Made by a program: the position numbers and the translations under genes. A DNA stretch of 64,000 nucleotides from an uncultured Alphaproteobacteria bacterium (GTDB taxonomy: Bacteria > Pseudomonadota > Alphaproteobacteria > Rs-D84): the NCBI GenBank assembly GCA_949156565.1, contig CASCZI010000001.1, positions 118,856 through 182,855 on the forward strand, given 5' to 3'. Shown in pieces: positions 4,970 to 54,100 of the stretch (positions are counted from its first letter, which is position 1; each line of letters opens with the position of its first letter). The notes under the pieces were generated by a model. It saw only the letters and a program-made list of their open reading frames with translations. It did not search any database and had not been told where the DNA came from.

Positions 4970-7369
<2,400 letters not shown>

Positions 7370-7448
7370 CTACTTTTTCCTTTCGTTTTTCACATGAAAA
7401 CCATAGCAATTTATGCTATAATGATCAAGAAAAAAGGGACAAAATACC

Positions 7449-7730
7449 ATGACAGAAACAAAAGAAGATTACTTTACCAAAGATGATTATTTATCACCCA
7501 CCAAGGCGGCCATAAAATTCAAAGAATCACGAAAACTGGTCCAAGATTTAATGACCGAAATTTACCGGAAAAAAATGACGTTTAATATTGGTTCAAAAAA
7601 ACGGATTCTGGTCATATTAAAGCATTCTGCCAAGGCAAATCTCCGCAACATGGCTAATTTACGGTTACATCCATTAGGAATTGAGATTTTTCAAGAATTA
7701 TTGACCCAGGCCAAGGACAAGAGCAAATGA
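7449..7730 (+). CDS. Small hypothetical protein (93 aa), first gene of a two-gene cassette
   Basis: ATG start downstream of a TATAAT (7417-7422). Lys-rich. Overlaps the next gene by ATGA. Confidence 0.45.
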   Translation: MTETKEDYFTKDDYLSPTKAAIKFKESRKLVQDLMTEIYRKKMTFNIGSKKRILVILKHSAKANLRNMANLRLHPLGIEIFQELLTQAKDKSK

Positions 7731-39727: not shown

Positions 39728-42040
39728 ATGAAATGGACATATGATTGGTTGCAAGATTATCTGGACACGACGGCAACGCCAACAGAAATTGCCGATACAT
39801 TGACGCGCATCGGATTAGAGGTGGAAGATTTATCAAACCCCATGCCCATTATTGCGGCAAAAATTGTAGAATGCCACCCCCATCCCGACAGTGATCATTT
39901 ACATGTATTAGCGGTGGATGACGGTTCAAATACCCCCCGCCAGGTGGTATGTGGCGCGCCAAACGCGCGGGTCGGATTGGTATCGGCCCTGGCCCGGCCG
40001 GGGTGTGTTGTGGCGGGATCTGAAATTAAACCGGGTAAATTGCGGGGTGTTATGTCCAATGGCATGATGTGCAGCGCCCGCGAAATTGGTATTGGAACCG
40101 ATCATGATGGTATTTTGCAATTACCGGAAACGACCGTCCTGGGGACGCCAGTGGGGGATACAACGGTTGTTTTTGATGCCGGGATTACACCCAATCGGCC
40201 GGATTATTTATCGGTTTCTGGGATTGCGCGTGATTTGGCCGCGGCTGGTATTGGGACATATAAATCCAATTCGATCCCCAATATGTTTCAAGTGAAATCC
40301 CAACGCGCCGTTCATATTGACACGGATAAATGTCCGACGTATCGGTTTTGTGAAATTCATGGGATTAACAATGGGCCGTCAAATCCGCGAATTGCGCGGC
40401 GATTGGGGGCGATTGGAATTAATCCTAAAAATGCGGCGGTGGATATGACAAATTATATCTGTTATGATATGGGTCAACCCATGCATTGTTTTGATGCCGA
40501 TGCGGTGGTGGGTGACATCACGGTGCGTATGGCGCATGCGAACGAAGAATTTACCGATTTATTTGGCAAAGCCCATACATTAACCGAAAATGATATGGTT
40601 ATTGCCGACGCATCGGGTATTTTGGCCGTGGCGGGGGTAATTGGTGGCGCGCGCGCGATGACAACGACCCAGACCCAAAATATTATTTTAGAATGTGCGT
40701 ATTTTGATCCGGTATCGGTTCGTAAATCGGCCAAGCGTATGGGTATATCATCAGATGCATCGTACCGGTATGAACGGGGGATTGATCCAACACTTAATGG
40801 GCCGGCATTGGCCCGCGCCACCGAAATGATTCTTGATAACTGTGGTGGGGATGTTGTGGGATGTGGATTTGCAGGACGTGCCGTCACAGGCAATATAAAA
40901 ATTACATATCACCCCACGCTGATGCGGACAATGGCCGGGATTGATATCGATCCATCGACCCAGAAAAAAATTCTGGGGGCATTGGATTTTGTTGTGACCG
41001 AATCGGGGGATACATGGACCATCTATCCCCCATCGGCGCGTGTTGATGTGCAAATTCCCCAACATATTGTTTCCGAATTGTTACGCATCCATGGATATGA
41101 TCAGATGGTGATGGCGGATGGTCAATCACGGCGGGAAAATATGCATGACAATGCCTGTAATGATCCGGAATACACACTTAAACGTCAATTGGCGCAACGT
41201 GGTTTACTTGAAACGGTGTCGTTTGGATTTGGTCATCGGGCGGTCGAAGAATTATTGTCGTCCAAGGCGTCTGTCCCCATTGCCAATCCCATTACGTCCG
41301 AATTAGATACCGCCCGTCATTCGTTATTGGGCAATGTCTTGGGGGCGGTTGCCGGGAATGAAAAACGGGGATATGGGGATGTAAATATCTTTGAAATGGG
41401 AACGGTCTTTGATGGTGACAATCCCGGCGAGCAGCATACACAAATTGTGATCGCGCGGATGGGTGTCACATCCCCGCGTCATTGGATGCACCGCAATCGT
41501 GATATTGATATTTTTGATGTCAAGGCGGATGTCATGGCGTTAACGCGTGGAATGAATGTGACGTTACAAACATCGGGTGCCCCAAAATGGGCCCATCCGT
41601 ATCGGTATGGGGCCCTGGTTCAGGGAAAACGCATTATTGCTGAATTTGGCGAAGTCCATCCGATGGTTCGTCGGGCATTAAAGATCAAGGGACGCGTTTA
41701 CGTGGCCATTGTGGATGACGTGGCCGTTTTGGCCCAAAAACGTCGACGTGATATAACACCCATCACGGAATTTCAACCGATTAGTCGTGATTTTTCATTT
41801 ATCATTGATGACAATGTGGCGGCGGGCGATTTGATGATGGCGGCCCGTGGTGCGGATGCACACATTACAGATGTCATTGTTTTTGATGCGTTTGATATGG
41901 GTGATGGGAAAAAATCCATTGCATTAACCATTACAATCACGCCGGACAAAAACATGTCCGATACCGATTTGTTGGACATCCAAAACGCCGTGATTGCGGC
42001 ATGCGCCAAGAAATGTAATGCCCAAATCCGGGATAAATAA
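39728..42040 (+). CDS. pheT: Phenylalanine--tRNA ligase beta subunit
   Basis: 770 aa. tRNA-binding, B3/B4, B5 and FDX-ACB domain pattern. Confidence 0.9.
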   Translation: MKWTYDWLQDYLDTTATPTEIADTLTRIGLEVEDLSNPMPIIAAKIVECHPHPDSDHLHVLAVDDGSNTPRQVVCGAPNARVGLVSALARPGCVVAGSEIKPGKLRGVMSNGMMCSAREIGIGTDHDGILQLPETTVLGTPVGDTTVVFDAGITPNRPDYLSVSGIARDLAAAGIGTYKSNSIPNMFQVKSQRAVHIDTDKCPTYRFCEIHGINNGPSNPRIARRLGAIGINPKNAAVDMTNYICYDMGQPMHCFDADAVVGDITVRMAHANEEFTDLFGKAHTLTENDMVIADASGILAVAGVIGGARAMTTTQTQNIILECAYFDPVSVRKSAKRMGISSDASYRYERGIDPTLNGPALARATEMILDNCGGDVVGCGFAGRAVTGNIKITYHPTLMRTMAGIDIDPSTQKKILGALDFVVTESGDTWTIYPPSARVDVQIPQHIVSELLRIHGYDQMVMADGQSRRENMHDNACNDPEYTLKRQLAQRGLLETVSFGFGHRAVEELLSSKASVPIANPITSELDTARHSLLGNVLGAVAGNEKRGYGDVNIFEMGTVFDGDNPGEQHTQIVIARMGVTSPRHWMHRNRDIDIFDVKADVMALTRGMNVTLQTSGAPKWAHPYRYGALVQGKRIIAEFGEVHPMVRRALKIKGRVYVAIVDDVAVLAQKRRRDITPITEFQPISRDFSFIIDDNVAAGDLMMAARGADAHITDVIVFDAFDMGDGKKSIALTITITPDKNMSDTDLLDIQNAVIAACAKKCNAQIRDK

Positions 42041-48178: not shown

Positions 48179-48520
48179 ATGCGTGATACCATAAAAAAAC
48201 ATACTGATTTTATTGCCGCCGACACAGATGTGACGGCGCGCGCCGCCGGGTTTATTATTCGGGCCCGTCCCACACGTTTTGCCGATGGGGGGCGATATGG
48301 TCTGGTGACGACAAAGCGGACATTTCGCCATGCGGTTGATCGTAATCGCGCACGCCGCCGGTTACGGGCATGGATTGGGGCATGTGAAAAAATGTTAAAG
48401 CCCGGCTGGGATTACATATTTATTGCGCGGCCATCCATTCTCAATTGGTCCCATACAGATGCCATGGTCGCCATGGGCAAGGCGTTACATTACCTGTCGC
48501 ATCAAAAAAAATCGGTATAA
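48179..48520 (+). CDS. rnpA: Ribonuclease P protein component
   Basis: Basic 113-aa protein with the RNR motif region ([11 protein letters not shown]). No rpmH upstream. Confidence 0.8.
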
Positions 48521-50908: not shown

Positions 50909-51643
50909 CTATTCCATGCGATATGTTGTGTTACCGATGCGAACATGGATTCCCGTCCCAGATTCGGTGGTTAAATTGCCGTAACAGATGCCGCCTGGTA
51001 TTTTAACAACAATTGCCGGGGATGTATGGCGCGATGCATATAATGGGGCCGTGACGGTGCCCATATGAATTTGCGTCACGCCCGCGGCGCACAAGGGTTG
51101 ACATGTATCCCCGACGCGCCCGTATCCATCGTCACATTCCCATGGGCAATTTGATTCTATTGCACCCACGCTGGACGGGGTTGAATATGATGTATAATGG
51201 GCATGCGCGGGGCCGTTTGTGCATGGCGCACATTGATCGTACCACGGTCCCCAGAGATAATGACTGGCGTAATAACCGGGACGACAATCAATATATTGAT
51301 GATATTGAATGCCACCCGGCCCTTCGATACAGGGACGTTCATATTGATACCATGTCCGCGTGTCATCAGAATAGTCCCAGTTACAAATACAATGTTTGGC
51401 CGCTGTGGCGTGGGGGGAATCCCATTCCCCGTCCACAGATGTATAAACCCGGGCCAAATGTGAATCATTATCCAGATCCCAACAGGAATAGCGTATATCA
51501 TCCCCGGGACAATAATGTTTTGCGCCGCAATCCGTGCATTTGTTATTTGCCAAATAATATCCCGGATCACACGTTGCGGCCAACCCTGGTAAAACCGGCA
51601 AAACCAAAACAGCCCCCAAAAACCCGACAGTTTTTTTAGGCAT
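50909..51643 (-). CDS. Secreted cysteine-rich protein with two ephrin-receptor-like CxPGYY...CxxC repeats
   Basis: Signal peptide MPKKTVGFLGAVLVLPVLPGLAA. CDPGYYLANNKCTDCGAKHYCPG and CRPGYYASHY...CAPCTNG. About 22 Cys. Possible paralogue of 3534..3989. Confidence 0.5.
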   Translation of the reverse strand: MPKKTVGFLGAVLVLPVLPGLAATCDPGYYLANNKCTDCGAKHYCPGDDIRYSCWDLDNDSHLARVYTSVDGEWDSPHATAAKHCICNWDYSDDTRTWYQYERPCIEGPGGIQYHQYIDCRPGYYASHYLWGPWYDQCAPCTNGPAHAHYTSYSTPSSVGAIESNCPWECDDGYGRVGDTCQPLCAAGVTQIHMGTVTAPLYASRHTSPAIVVKIPGGICYGNLTTESGTGIHVRIGNTTYRME

Positions 51644-51712
51644 AGTCCCAATATTAAAAATCCCGGATTTCTGCGACAAATTTTCCCCCCAACTATGCCT
51701 AAAAAAACTGTC
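51626..51712. repeat. Perfect 21-bp inverted repeat (GACAGTTTTTTTAGGCATAGT) bracketing a 45-bp spacer
   Basis: Arms at 51626-51646 and 51692-51712. Each arm contains an ATG plus six identical codons (MPKKTV). A third partial copy lies at 51721-51732. Confidence 0.7.
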
Positions 51713-52253
51713 CCTTTGGATTAGGCATAGTCAAATCACGTTCAACCCCAGGAATTATACCCGTTTGCACGATTTTATGCAAGCGGGAAAATTTGGGGAC
51801 CGGGGACAAGGGTTCGCCGCCCGTACATCTAGGCCTAAACAATTATAAAAAGACCACCCCGTCGGTATCACCCCCAAAAATTTTCAATTTTTGCGGGGCC
51901 CGATTGCGCGTCCACCCCGACCCCGGGCCCTGTGGAAATTGTTAAATTTCCATGGGTGGGTTCTGGCGGGGGAACTTCTCTCTGTTCTTAAATTCCACAC
52001 CTCGGGCACCCATGTGGGATAGTTTAAAAAAAAGACCACCCCGGGCTTCGCCCACCCCTCCACCGGAGGGGAACTTTGCAACGGCGTGGCACAAAGACAA
52101 GTTCTCCTCCTGTGGAGGAGTACCGGCGTAGCCGGGGAGGTGGTATTTATCTAAACTCTGAAAACCGATCTGATGTGGGGTAACGGGGATTATTACCCCC
52201 CCTGCCCCAATGGATTGGTTTTTGATAAAAAAACGCCGGGAAAGCCCGGCATT

Positions 52254-53135
52254 TTATGAACACAATTTTTCGATGATTTTTTCCATTTCACGACGGGAAT
52301 GAAACCGAATATGGATTTCACCTGCGCCGTTGCGCCGCCGCAGAATTTTTATATCTGAATCGAAAAATTGACGGGCCGATTTATCCAATGTTGCCCACAT
52401 TTCGTCATTGTCGGTGTCGTCATTTCGGTGGGCACGTGCGCCGGATGCCCGTTGGGTGCGATGAACGCGGGCCTGGGTATCGGCAACCGTCAATTTCTTT
52501 TCGATAATTTCATTGGCCAATTCGGTCGGATTTTCCGCCACGGCAATTGTACGGGCATGTGATGCAGATATGCGGCCGGATTCCACCATGTCTTTGACCG
52601 TATCCGGTAATGCATCCAATCGCATGATATTGCGGATATAGCTGACCGATTTGCCAATCAAACGGGAAACATCATCCAAACTGTACCCGCATTTATCCAT
52701 AATATTTTTATAGGCGGCGCCTTCTTCGATCGGGTTCAGGTTTTCCCGTTGAACATTTTCAATCAGTGCGATTTCCATCGCGTTTTCTGGGGTCAATTCT
52801 TTGACCAACGCGGGAATTTCGTTGCAACCGGCCATCTTGCTGGCGCGGTAACGACGTTCGCCGGCCACAATTTCGTATTGGTAATCACGTCCCACGACCG
52901 CACGTAATAATATAGGCTGTAACACGCCTTGGGCGCGAATAGATGATGCCAGATCGTCCAACTGGGCCGGGTCAAATGTTTTTCGGGGCTGATCCGGGTT
53001 AACGCCAATCTGAACCAATGGAATTTGTCGTACCGCCACGCGGTCTGTGCCACGCAGGATAGAAATGTCGGGGATGTTCCCCATTTCTGCCTTGATATCC
53101 GCCAAACCACGCCCCAGACCAAATTTCTGCGCCAT
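52254..53135 (-). CDS. parB: Chromosome partitioning protein ParB
   Basis: ParB/Spo0J box (GERRYRA) and HTH. Confidence 0.9.
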   Translation of the reverse strand: MAQKFGLGRGLADIKAEMGNIPDISILRGTDRVAVRQIPLVQIGVNPDQPRKTFDPAQLDDLASSIRAQGVLQPILLRAVVGRDYQYEIVAGERRYRASKMAGCNEIPALVKELTPENAMEIALIENVQRENLNPIEEGAAYKNIMDKCGYSLDDVSRLIGKSVSYIRNIMRLDALPDTVKDMVESGRISASHARTIAVAENPTELANEIIEKKLTVADTQARVHRTQRASGARAHRNDDTDNDEMWATLDKSARQFFDSDIKILRRRNGAGEIHIRFHSRREMEKIIEKLCS

Positions 53136-54022: not shown

Positions 54023-54100
54023 TTATTTCATGTGAAATAAATATGAAAAACAGAAAATTGTGTATTTTCAATATGTTATGTGTTATTTCATATGAAATAA
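54023..54100. promoter_or_regulatory. Two parS-like 18-bp palindromes (TTATTTCA-NN-TGAAATAA) upstream of parA
   Basis: Copies at 54023-54040 (center TG) and 54083-54100 (perfect, center TA). 12/16 match to the TGTTTCACGTGAAACA consensus. Confidence 0.4.

Follow-up and report, generated by a model that had tools for sequence, protein, structure and literature searches.

A hairpin-dense gap beside parB in an uncultured Alphaproteobacteria bacterium as one copy of a probable repeated control region

Genes and features at the locus

Within the window, by which is meant the whole stretch of 64,000 nucleotides that was analysed, the region between positions 51733 and 52250 has no credible open reading frame, the longest being 65 aa. 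To its right lies parB, whose product has the Pfam domains ParB_N and HTH_ParB, and to its left, on the minus strand, lies a gene for a Cys-rich secreted protein. This protein has a signal peptide and is a member of a family of 23 proteins; it matches no Pfam family, and its predicted fold (pLDDT 72.8) gives weak TNF-receptor-like matches, with E values of at least 0.02. The interval itself is made up of the terminator of parB, two palindromic modules and a predicted promoter, with a uORF and an inverted repeat placed just outside it. The positions of these features are collected in Table 1.

Table 1. Features of the region and of its left flank, in window coordinates
Feature	Position	Strand	Remark
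Intrinsic terminator of parB, GCCGGG-cttt-CCCGGC + T7	52228..52253	-	From the sequence; stem 52235-52250 fits the Rho-independent definition
Hairpin GGGGCAGGGGGGG..CCCCGTTACCCC	52177..52208	-	Confined to the parB-linked copy
Left-boundary motif of module, TTCAGAGTTTAG (consensus TTCAGAGT(GCAGAGT)TCAGAT)	52151..52162	-	
Module unit 1, imperfect palindrome of ~120 nt, arms with small palindromes	52026..52148	-	
Module unit 2, longer partial duplicate of unit 1	51847..52025	-	
Strain-variable segment	51816..51845	.	Different sequence in L001, L002 and L003
Predicted sigma-70-type promoter, TTGCAT-17-TATAAT-TCCTGG	51748..51782	-	Motif conserved in paralog copies
uORF ATGCCTAATCCAAAGGGACAGTTTTTTTAG (MPNPKGQFF*), 9 codons	51699..51728	-	Outside the start of the region
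Perfect 21-nt arms (51626-51646 and 51692-51712) around a 45-bp segment (51647-51691)	51626..51712	.	
Shine-Dalgarno GGGGGG + AAAAT + TTG start, window orientation	51677..51690	-	In frame with the main ORF
Cys-rich secreted protein gene	50909..51643	-	244 aa from ATG, 256 aa from TTG

A preliminary description had reported an excess of G+C, which is present but modest, with values of 0.53-0.57 in the region compared with 0.44-0.55 in the flanks. It had also listed three palindromes with centres of three nucleotides, CCCCTCC-acc-GGAGGGG (52055-52071), CTCCTCC-tgt-GGAGGAG (52104-52120) and CCGGC-gta-GCCGG (52123-52135), and each is found exactly at its position. What had been overlooked is that these serial palindromes are parts of one single imperfect palindrome of about 120 nucleotides (52029-52148), and that a perfect inverted repeat with arms of 21 nucleotides lies just left of the region. 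The hairpin TGGAAATT-gtta-AATTTCCA is present as well, at 51933-51952, which is one nucleotide to the left of where it had been placed. GGGGCCCG (51895-51902) pairs with CGGGCCC (51924-51930), the direct repeats AAAAAGACCACCCCG (51847 and 52029) and GGGGAACTT (51969 and 52068) both occur twice, and the pentamer TGTGG occurs four times, all as described. For AAAAAGACCACCCCG, 0.21 matches with at most two mismatches are expected by chance in the whole window.

When the region is compared with dinucleotide shuffles, it has six perfect hairpins (stem of at least 5, loop of 3-6) against 2.2, a number that was reached by 21 of 500 shuffles; two of the six are nested at one palindrome, so that five are distinct. 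Their stems comprise 40 bp against 11.7, which was reached by 4 of 500. The z-scores of the minimum free energy (MFE) for the whole region are -5.8 on the plus strand and -4.9 on the minus strand, and for 52020-52152 the z-score is -5.5 on either strand.

The modules are read on the minus strand. In unit 1, ACCACCTC, CCGGC-tac-GCCGG, CTCCTCC-aca-GGAGGAG and GAACTTG lead to the centre, and after the centre follow AAGTTC, CCCCTCC-ggt-GGAGGGG, GGGC-gaa-GCCC, GGGGTGGTC and a run of eight T. The three triloop palindromes described earlier all lie inside this unit, which has homologues in L026, L028, L033 and L023, and the left-boundary motif opens the module in the window, L021, L026, L028 (twice) and L033. 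Unit 2 contains AAGTTCCCC, the hairpin at 51933-51952, CAAAAATT-gaa-AATTTTTG (51875-51893), CGACGGGGTGGTC and five T, and the L026 paralog has its block CGGGCCCCGCAAAAATTnAAAATTTTTGGGGGTGATACCGACGGGGTGG in nearly identical form. The window carries one and a half modules. Strains vary in these features: the 41-42-nt hairpin at 51927-51968 is absent in L003, hairpins of L021 and L022 differ from those of the window, a G.U pair on the minus strand in the hairpin at 52177-52208 is replaced by G-C in L021 and L022, and the stem of the parB terminator has in L021 a change that gives a G.U pair in minus-strand RNA only.

A cassette shared by the Cys-rich gene family

Read on the minus strand, the region corresponds to the upstream part of a cassette found at at least six paralogous genes in this species and a sister species, and it is almost certainly one copy of a multi-copy upstream cassette of the Cys-rich gene family. 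Copies in the same species belong to P0141 (L026/L027), P0135 (L028), P0134 (L029/L030) and P0138 (L025), and a copy in L001 stands upstream of a paralog of 284/296 aa. In the second species, copies belong to P0137 (L033/L034) and to a short family member (L023). There is also an orphan module in L028, located 2 kb downstream of a family member, which has no promoter or gene behind it and stops exactly at the T run.

The order of elements in the cassette is the terminator of the upstream gene, one or two modules ending with CGACGGGGTGGTC and a T run, the promoter, the uORF, the segment flanked by inverted repeats and the start of the gene. The gene upstream of the cassette is always co-directional with it and usually has a terminator of its own; elsewhere than at parB, the genes ahead of the module are argS, a tRNA, accC and unrelated genes. 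The strand of the module that is G-rich and carries the T run is co-directional with the upstream gene in 6 of 6 contexts, the orphan included. Inside the module, the left-boundary motif is followed by short G+C-rich hairpins, GAACTTG, the centre and AAGTTCCCCTCY-loop-GGAGGGG, and then by TGG, a GAA-triloop hairpin and CGACGGGGTGGTC with its T run.

The promoter predicted in the window has its -35 element at 51782-51777 and its -10 element at 51759-51754. By a pattern scan, TTGnnn-17-TA(T/A)AAT-nnCTGG is common to the paralog copies of two species, and TTGCAC-17-TATAAT followed by GTATGG can be read in the sequence of a third species (L032). From the conservation of its sequence and spacing, it appears very likely that this motif serves as the promoter of the cassette. 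The uORF is present in all copies, and in each of the 11 loci with both starts its ATG and the main ATG are exactly 85 nt apart. In L032, the promoter, the uORF and the pairing of the arms are present and the module is absent. From this follows that the module is dispensable for the leader.

Sequence identity shows much stronger conservation in the cassette than in the coding sequences behind it. With respect to REARRANGEMENT and the conservation of the cassette, identity between paralogs amounts to 57-97% in the leader (-140 to +24), compared with 33-59% for the coding DNA of the same paralogs; for L026 and L028, the leader is 84% and the coding sequence 37% identical. Within the module, AAGTTCCCCTC, CGACGGGGTGGTC with its T run and the left-boundary motif are kept between two species with ParB proteins that are only 68% identical. 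The preliminary description had proposed to look for conservation in relatives, and the answer is divided: the cassette is kept at paralogs and in the sister species, but not after parB. The species is isolated when judged by ParB, for which the matches fall from 99% to 74% identity, and the DNA after parB is unrelated in L006 (ParB 74%), L023 (68%) and L024 (70%). What follows parB in the three nearest relatives with usable contigs is a gene remnant, pnp or mnmG. Judged from these sequences, the region is not linked to parB in evolution.

In two pairs of metagenome-assembled genomes (MAGs), the upstream flank is shared but leads into different paralogs, and the synteny downstream differs as well. 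In the pair L026 and L029, about 2.7 kb of upstream DNA, comprising genes for 372 aa and 542 aa plus the module, is 100% identical, and the break occurs at the border between module and promoter, with P0141 following in L026 and P0134 in L029. The second pair is the window and L001, which agree completely in parB, module and leader and whose genes start to differ about nine codons in. Everything compared here comes from metagenome assemblies, and contigs that stop within the cassette are numerous, as is expected since the cassette is a repeat.

The first hairpin past the boundary motif is CCGGC-tac-GCCGG in the window, CCCCC-ttt-GGGGG in L021, CCCC-gttc-GGGG in L026, CCCC-ttcg-GGGG in the L028 orphan, CCGAC-ctgc-GTCGG in L033 and GGCGG-tttca-CCGCC in L028. 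The second is CTCCTCC-aca-GGAGGAG or CTCCC-tcga/ttaa-GGGAG, and the hairpin TGGAAATT..AATTTCCA has become CGGAAATT..AATTTCCG in another copy, the partner having changed too. Since the hairpins persist with different stems, it can be argued that the hairpin potential is maintained; this covariation was judged by eye on about five independent module sequences. At three positions there is a G.U pair on the minus (sense) strand and C.A on the plus (antisense) strand, an asymmetry that weakly favours folding of the sense strand. At one hairpin centre, TCGA has changed to TTAA, symmetrically and inside the 'loop', and between L033 and L023 a loop of four nucleotides is flipped (cttc versus gaag). 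The symmetric centre change and the loop flip point to palindrome maintenance at the DNA level, which they fit better than selection on RNA.

Some further readings of the locus were tried and dropped. A decayed paralog of the Cys-rich gene was sought by six-frame translation and by tblastn with two family proteins in 51690-52260; this gave only the six duplicated codons MPKKTV and no match below E 0.1. As for a dispersed repeat, the only sequences that recur inside the window are terminator-like hairpins. The left edge of the module was considered as the site of a conserved promoter, which was rejected because its spacing is not conserved. The idea of a G-quadruplex, which came by analogy with the G4 of Neisseria pilE, was rejected because there are only three G runs per tract and these are not conserved between copies. 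Outside the genomes considered here, two leader patterns gave 0 matches each in JGI metagenome contigs and the leader pattern gave 0 in viral contigs, where a 17-mer gave 4 matches, 0 of them with module context and two being simple terminators; blastn against plasmid and phage collections gave no match.

The invertible segment at the start of the gene

Perfect arms of 21 nt, of which 0 are expected by chance, flank the 45-bp segment, and the left arm holds the ATG and the first six codons of the Cys-rich gene. In L002, which is the same locus with the same gene and a ParB that is 100% identical, the 45-bp spacer is the exact reverse complement of that in the window. Both orientations are thereby seen at one locus, in two independent assemblies of one gene. 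We infer that mis-assembly of the inversion is unlikely, since the whole structure of 87 bp is shorter than the k of the assembler (contig name k119_). The window orientation is common to the window, L001 and L025, and the opposite one (orientation-1) is found in L002, L026, L028, L029, L031, L033 and L023.

The two orientations present different signals ahead of the gene. In the window orientation, TTGGGGGGAAAAT-TTG stands on the sense strand, in the reading frame of the gene, and a start at this TTG, which gene callers have picked in L001 and L025, adds MSQKSGIFNIGT to the main ORF. A G-run Shine-Dalgarno sequence (SD) is the norm in this genome; mreB, for instance, has ACGGGGGAAAAAT-ATG. 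In the opposite orientation, CCCCCCAACT stands ahead of the ATG, which is inside the 21-bp helix. When the flip is simulated in the seven orientation-1 copies, each acquires both a start codon at -33 to -42 (TTG, GTG or ATG) and the residues GIF, read in the frame of the main ORF and without stops, and six gain a G-rich SD. In the sister species, the flipped segment would supply the sole hydrophobic signal peptide, MQKYGIFILGLLSY.. or MRKLGIFLWVILLY... From the presence of an in-frame start in 7/7 and an SD in 6/7 on the flipped strand it is therefore suggested that both states are used.

The arm pairing covaries among paralogs. In one register, which is the same in all copies, 75.6% of the cells are paired, compared with at most 46.6% when the arms are slid against each other. 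Nine pairs have double-sided changes, and there are 23 such cells against 9.1 in shuffles (0/500). On the basis of the one polymorphic locus and of the coding potential conserved on the flipped strand, we consider the segment to be probably a functional inversion switch of the inverton type, which would either turn translation ON and OFF or switch the N-terminus. No recombinase Pfam domain was found among 30 ORFs scanned in the window or the genes listed for the fetched loci, and the alternative to inversion driven by a recombinase is spontaneous flipping of the hairpin loop. Another candidate, TTGTCG-17-TAATAT as a promoter within the invertible segment from which a leaderless mRNA would arise, was rejected because it is not conserved in L026 or L029.

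Interpretation and comparison with known systems

The explanation that best accounts for the locus as a whole, to which we assign a probability of roughly one half, is that the region is a minus-strand upstream control region, part of a multi-copy cassette with switch and insulator modules. The promoter would transcribe the leader of the Cys-rich gene, and inversion of the 45-bp segment would switch its translation. In the ON orientation, the G-run SD and the in-frame TTG start would be placed in the loop; in the OFF, or low, orientation, a CCCCCC tract would stand ahead of an AUG buried in the 21-bp helix. In the transcript of the upstream gene, on the sense strand, the promoter-distal modules would fold into a compound terminator, or insulator, that shields the switchable gene from read-through. 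As long near-identical tracts, they would in addition allow the dispersed paralog loci to undergo homologous recombination and gene conversion with one another.

This role of the modules, as compound terminator or insulator and as homology tract for recombination, is put forward tentatively. In the MFE fold of unit 1, ACCACCUC/GGGGUGGU closes one nucleotide before U8. A simple terminator in two viral contigs has GGGGTGGTC with T7 as its 3' half. Against such a role, ordinary terminators are already present at parB and at two other upstream genes. A 'giant terminator' geometry, with GGGGTGGTC in its closing helix, finds no support in the pairing: in five copies, the probability that GGGGTGGTC is paired ahead of the T run does not exceed that obtained when the upstream sequence is shuffled.

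The preliminary description had offered three suggestions: a protein-binding array of the partition locus, a novel structured ncRNA and a decayed repeat element. The first has a negligible probability, also when extended to nucleoid proteins other than ParB. The region does adjoin parB, and several of its palindromes are alike in form (CYCCTCC-N3-GGAGGRG), but the arm sequences of these palindromes are not conserved between copies, the module is found also behind argS, a tRNA, accC and unrelated genes, and in the nearest species parB is followed by other DNA, so that the link is gone. A search for the 16-bp palindrome TGTTNCACGTGNAACA with up to three mismatches gave parS-like sites in the window at 40284 and 54024 only and none in 51733-52250, the best of them, TATTTCATGTGAAATA at 54024-54039, being located ahead of parA. 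A free-standing structured small RNA, made from its own promoter on either strand, is very doubtful. It would account for the strongly negative z-scores, for the hairpins preserved with compensatory changes, for the T8 that ends unit 1 on the minus strand and for the slight G.U asymmetry toward that strand, but the z-scores of unit 1 are equal on both strands, as they are for DNA palindromes, large indels separate strains with identical ParB, the region is absent at the parB locus in the closest other species, and no conserved promoter is seen by eye at the 5' edge of the module, with 2 promoter-like sites in place of 1.7 expected. At the gathering threshold, Rfam gave only three tRNAs in the window, all outside the region, and nothing in the region or the paralog copies that would make it a known RNA; at E<=10, the best matches in 51500-52400 were DapZ, with 29.6 bits (gathering threshold 56), and miRNA models, and they arise because of the terminator and the 21-nt inverted repeat. 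ARAGORN found no tRNA or tmRNA in the region, and the earlier failure to match it to signatures of RNase P RNA, tmRNA or SRP RNA agrees with the unmatched Rfam families. What stands of the second suggestion is that hairpins are kept with changed stems, but the conserved promoter has most of the region on its upstream side, and we have largely given up the first idea of a novel ncRNA beside parB.

The third suggestion is the closest of the three: the region is a member of a multi-copy family, but it is not decayed and is tied to one gene family, and the further copies of the palindromes that were to be looked for do exist, in the loci covered at family genes, apart from one orphan, and not scattered in a REP/RPE-like manner. 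In its strongest form, this reading makes the module a selfish or neutral palindromic repeat without function of its own that is copied along with the gene, having started as a REP/RPE/MITE-like element, or as a terminator hairpin grown by template-switch duplication, that landed beside an ancestral family member. Such an origin is somewhat unlikely. The module is dispensable in L032, it evolves fast within the species (the 41-nt hairpin indel, replaced hairpins, a tandem partial duplication), it has T runs on both sides in L033 and L023, resembling a target duplication or an insertion at the T run of a terminator, it shows partly inverted blocks in L028 and 13-nt terminal inverted motifs (11/13 matching), and the symmetric centre changes and the loop flip fit mutational homogenisation of palindromes. 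Opposed to this are the motifs conserved between two species with ParB 68% identical, the lack of a clear TIR/TSD pair in most copies, and the finding of no copy away from the family, except for one orphan, in the 64-kb window and about 380 kb of loci, which are a family-biased sample. It is unlikely that the module is instead a DNA-level recombination element, which would shuffle paralogs behind their flanks as a dispersed form of antigenic variation, gene conversion being stimulated by extruded hairpins, cruciforms or GGGGTGG repeats in one orientation. Crossovers at the module/promoter border (L026 versus L029) and at the gene start (window versus L001), the orphan module that ends exactly at the T run, the concerted evolution of the cassette relative to coding sequences, four GGGGTGG on one strand within 300 nt and the mini-hairpin motif GCGAAGC in the window and L023 are all in line with it, GCGAAGC being an exceptionally stable DNA hairpin. 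However, a promoter is retained at every copy examined, and expression therefore does not require gene swapping, the rearrangements amount to two pairs, both between different MAGs, the crossovers are explicable by plain homology, and no canonical G4 is conserved. Quite unlikely is a novel system of dispersed antigenic variation in which whole paralog genes are exchanged between expression sites on the chromosome, driven by the module as a hairpin or cruciform in DNA, and this is combined with the leader inversion switch; the switch may then be independent of recombinases or depend on a novel one, and would swap RBS, start codon and N-terminus. We take the region to be neither a lone RNA gene nor a ParB site, but a copy of a repeated control region.

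If the proposed control by switch and insulator modules is true, a lineage seen only in metagenomes controls a secreted Cys-rich family through a common cassette, in which the target of a small inversion is not a promoter but the initiation of translation and, in some paralogs, the signal peptide. Inverton biology would then be extended to translation-start switching in Alphaproteobacteria, the long conserved upstream tracts would be sites of chromosome rearrangement between strains, and it would be explained why assemblies of these genomes break at cassette loci. For annotation there is the warning that hairpin-dense gaps without ORFs and with strong folding z-scores can be repeated palindromic DNA upstream of promoters and not RNA genes.

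The segment resembles the partial intergenic invertons that PhaseFinder and PhaVa have found in gut bacteria (PMC10028968). There too, a short segment between inverted repeats is located at the 5' end of a gene for a surface or secreted protein and occurs in nature in both orientations. In contrast to those invertons, the 45-bp segment here carries RBS, start codon and N-terminal codons instead of a promoter, and its arms include the first codons of the gene itself and differ in sequence between paralogs. Small 'flip-flop' inversions of hairpin loops are known from chloroplast DNA. They share with the present case a loop between short perfect inverted repeats that is found in either orientation, a flip for which the chloroplast inversions need no recombinase, but here the flipped strand has an in-frame start in 7/7 and an SD in 6/7 orientation-1 copies.

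The sapA homologs of Campylobacter fetus form a family of surface proteins with a conserved 5' region. Variable families of the same kind are vpma of Mycoplasma agalactiae, with Xer1 (PMC5634654), and mba of Ureaplasma (PMC3047005). In vpma, mba and sapA, as in the present family, upstream DNA and first codons are conserved, the rest has diverged, and one flank can be joined to different paralogs; in contrast to them, the copies here are dispersed round the chromosome, each with its own promoter, and no adjacent recombinase gene was found. Like REP/BIME, ERIC, Correia and the RPE of Rickettsia, the modules are multi-copy, G+C-rich, nested non-coding palindromes, often near terminators and variable between strains, but they are tied to one gene family and not scattered, and they have no consistent terminal repeats or target duplications. 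With Rho-independent terminators they have in common that G+C-rich stems are followed, on the strand of the upstream gene, by a T run, although the hairpin nearest the T run ends nine nucleotides before it and the closing helix would span about 100 nt. The cassette thus differs from each of these systems, by translation signals that are inverted, by dispersed copies that bear promoters, by palindromes tied to a gene family and by a non-canonical terminator geometry.

Orientation and strain differences upstream of the Cys-rich gene

The 45-bp segment between the inverted repeats (see the table) is inverted in the window relative to L002, a second assembly of the same locus. In one of the two orientations, the segment gives the Cys-rich gene a G-run SD together with an in-frame TTG start. 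The distance from the ATG of the conserved uORF to the main ATG is exactly 85 nt in all 11 loci that have both starts, and these loci represent three species. The N-termini of other family members (MPNPKVGF, MPNLNxGF) resemble the first codons of the uORF.

Two further differences occur between assemblies with identical ParB proteins. A 41-42-nt hairpin, present in the window at 51927-51968, is missing from L003, and in L001, L002 and L003, all three of which are assemblies of the window's parB locus, a different sequence replaces the 30-nt segment at 51816-51845. The window's version of this replacement is similar to the inverted-repeat arm (CATCTAGGCCTAAACAA versus CAACTATGCCTAAAAAA).

Features of the window and of related loci
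Feature	Locus	Position	Strand	Remark
45-bp segment	window	51626-51712		between perfect 21-nt inverted repeats; position includes the repeats
uORF MPNPKGQFF*	window	51699-51728	minus	9 codons, conserved
Palindrome TATTTCATGTGAAATA	window	54024-54039		perfect; best parS-like site, differing from the consensus at 3 positions
rnpA	window	48179-48520		RNase P protein gene; 3 kb from region
Hairpin ATCCCGGC-cttc-GCCGGGAT	L033	2716-2735
Hairpin ATCCCGTC-gaag-GACGGGAT	L023	7852-7871
Cassette	L023	7229-7960	minus	3' of accC, then short (about 100-codon) family member
Orphan palindromic module	L028	6790-7025	minus	3' of 143-aa gene

Rearrangements and dispersed copies

L001 (11514-12405) and the window (50909-51679) share the same upstream flanks, but the paralogs and the downstream synteny differ from MAG to MAG, and this is also the case for the paralog loci L026 and L029, which come from different MAGs and have identical upstream flanks. 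Such identity of flanks, combined with different paralogs and synteny, implies large rearrangements with breakpoints inside the cassette. In the parB-accC interval of L023, from a species with 68% ParB identity, the module-plus-gene segment is inverted with respect to the window. The hairpins of L033 and L023, two loci of a second species, are homologous, with loops that are reverse complements and one compensatory change in the stem, as if the 4-nt loop had been flipped between them. The orphan module at the paralog locus L028 directly borders a convergent 245-aa gene at that gene's 3' end and is followed by neither promoter, uORF nor family gene.

Other features near parB

The parS-like palindrome lies in the AT-rich gap (25-33% G+C) between rsmG and parA. 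With Rfam, no RNase P RNA was found across the whole window. In L006, from a species whose ParB is 74% identical, a stretch of 0.75 kb on the 3' side of parB (6900-7650) lacks a long ORF, contains protein-like motifs that recur along it, and has two near-identical terminators (AAAAAACCCGGGnAAAACCCGGGATTTTTTAT) at its edges; it is possibly a decayed repeat-protein gene.
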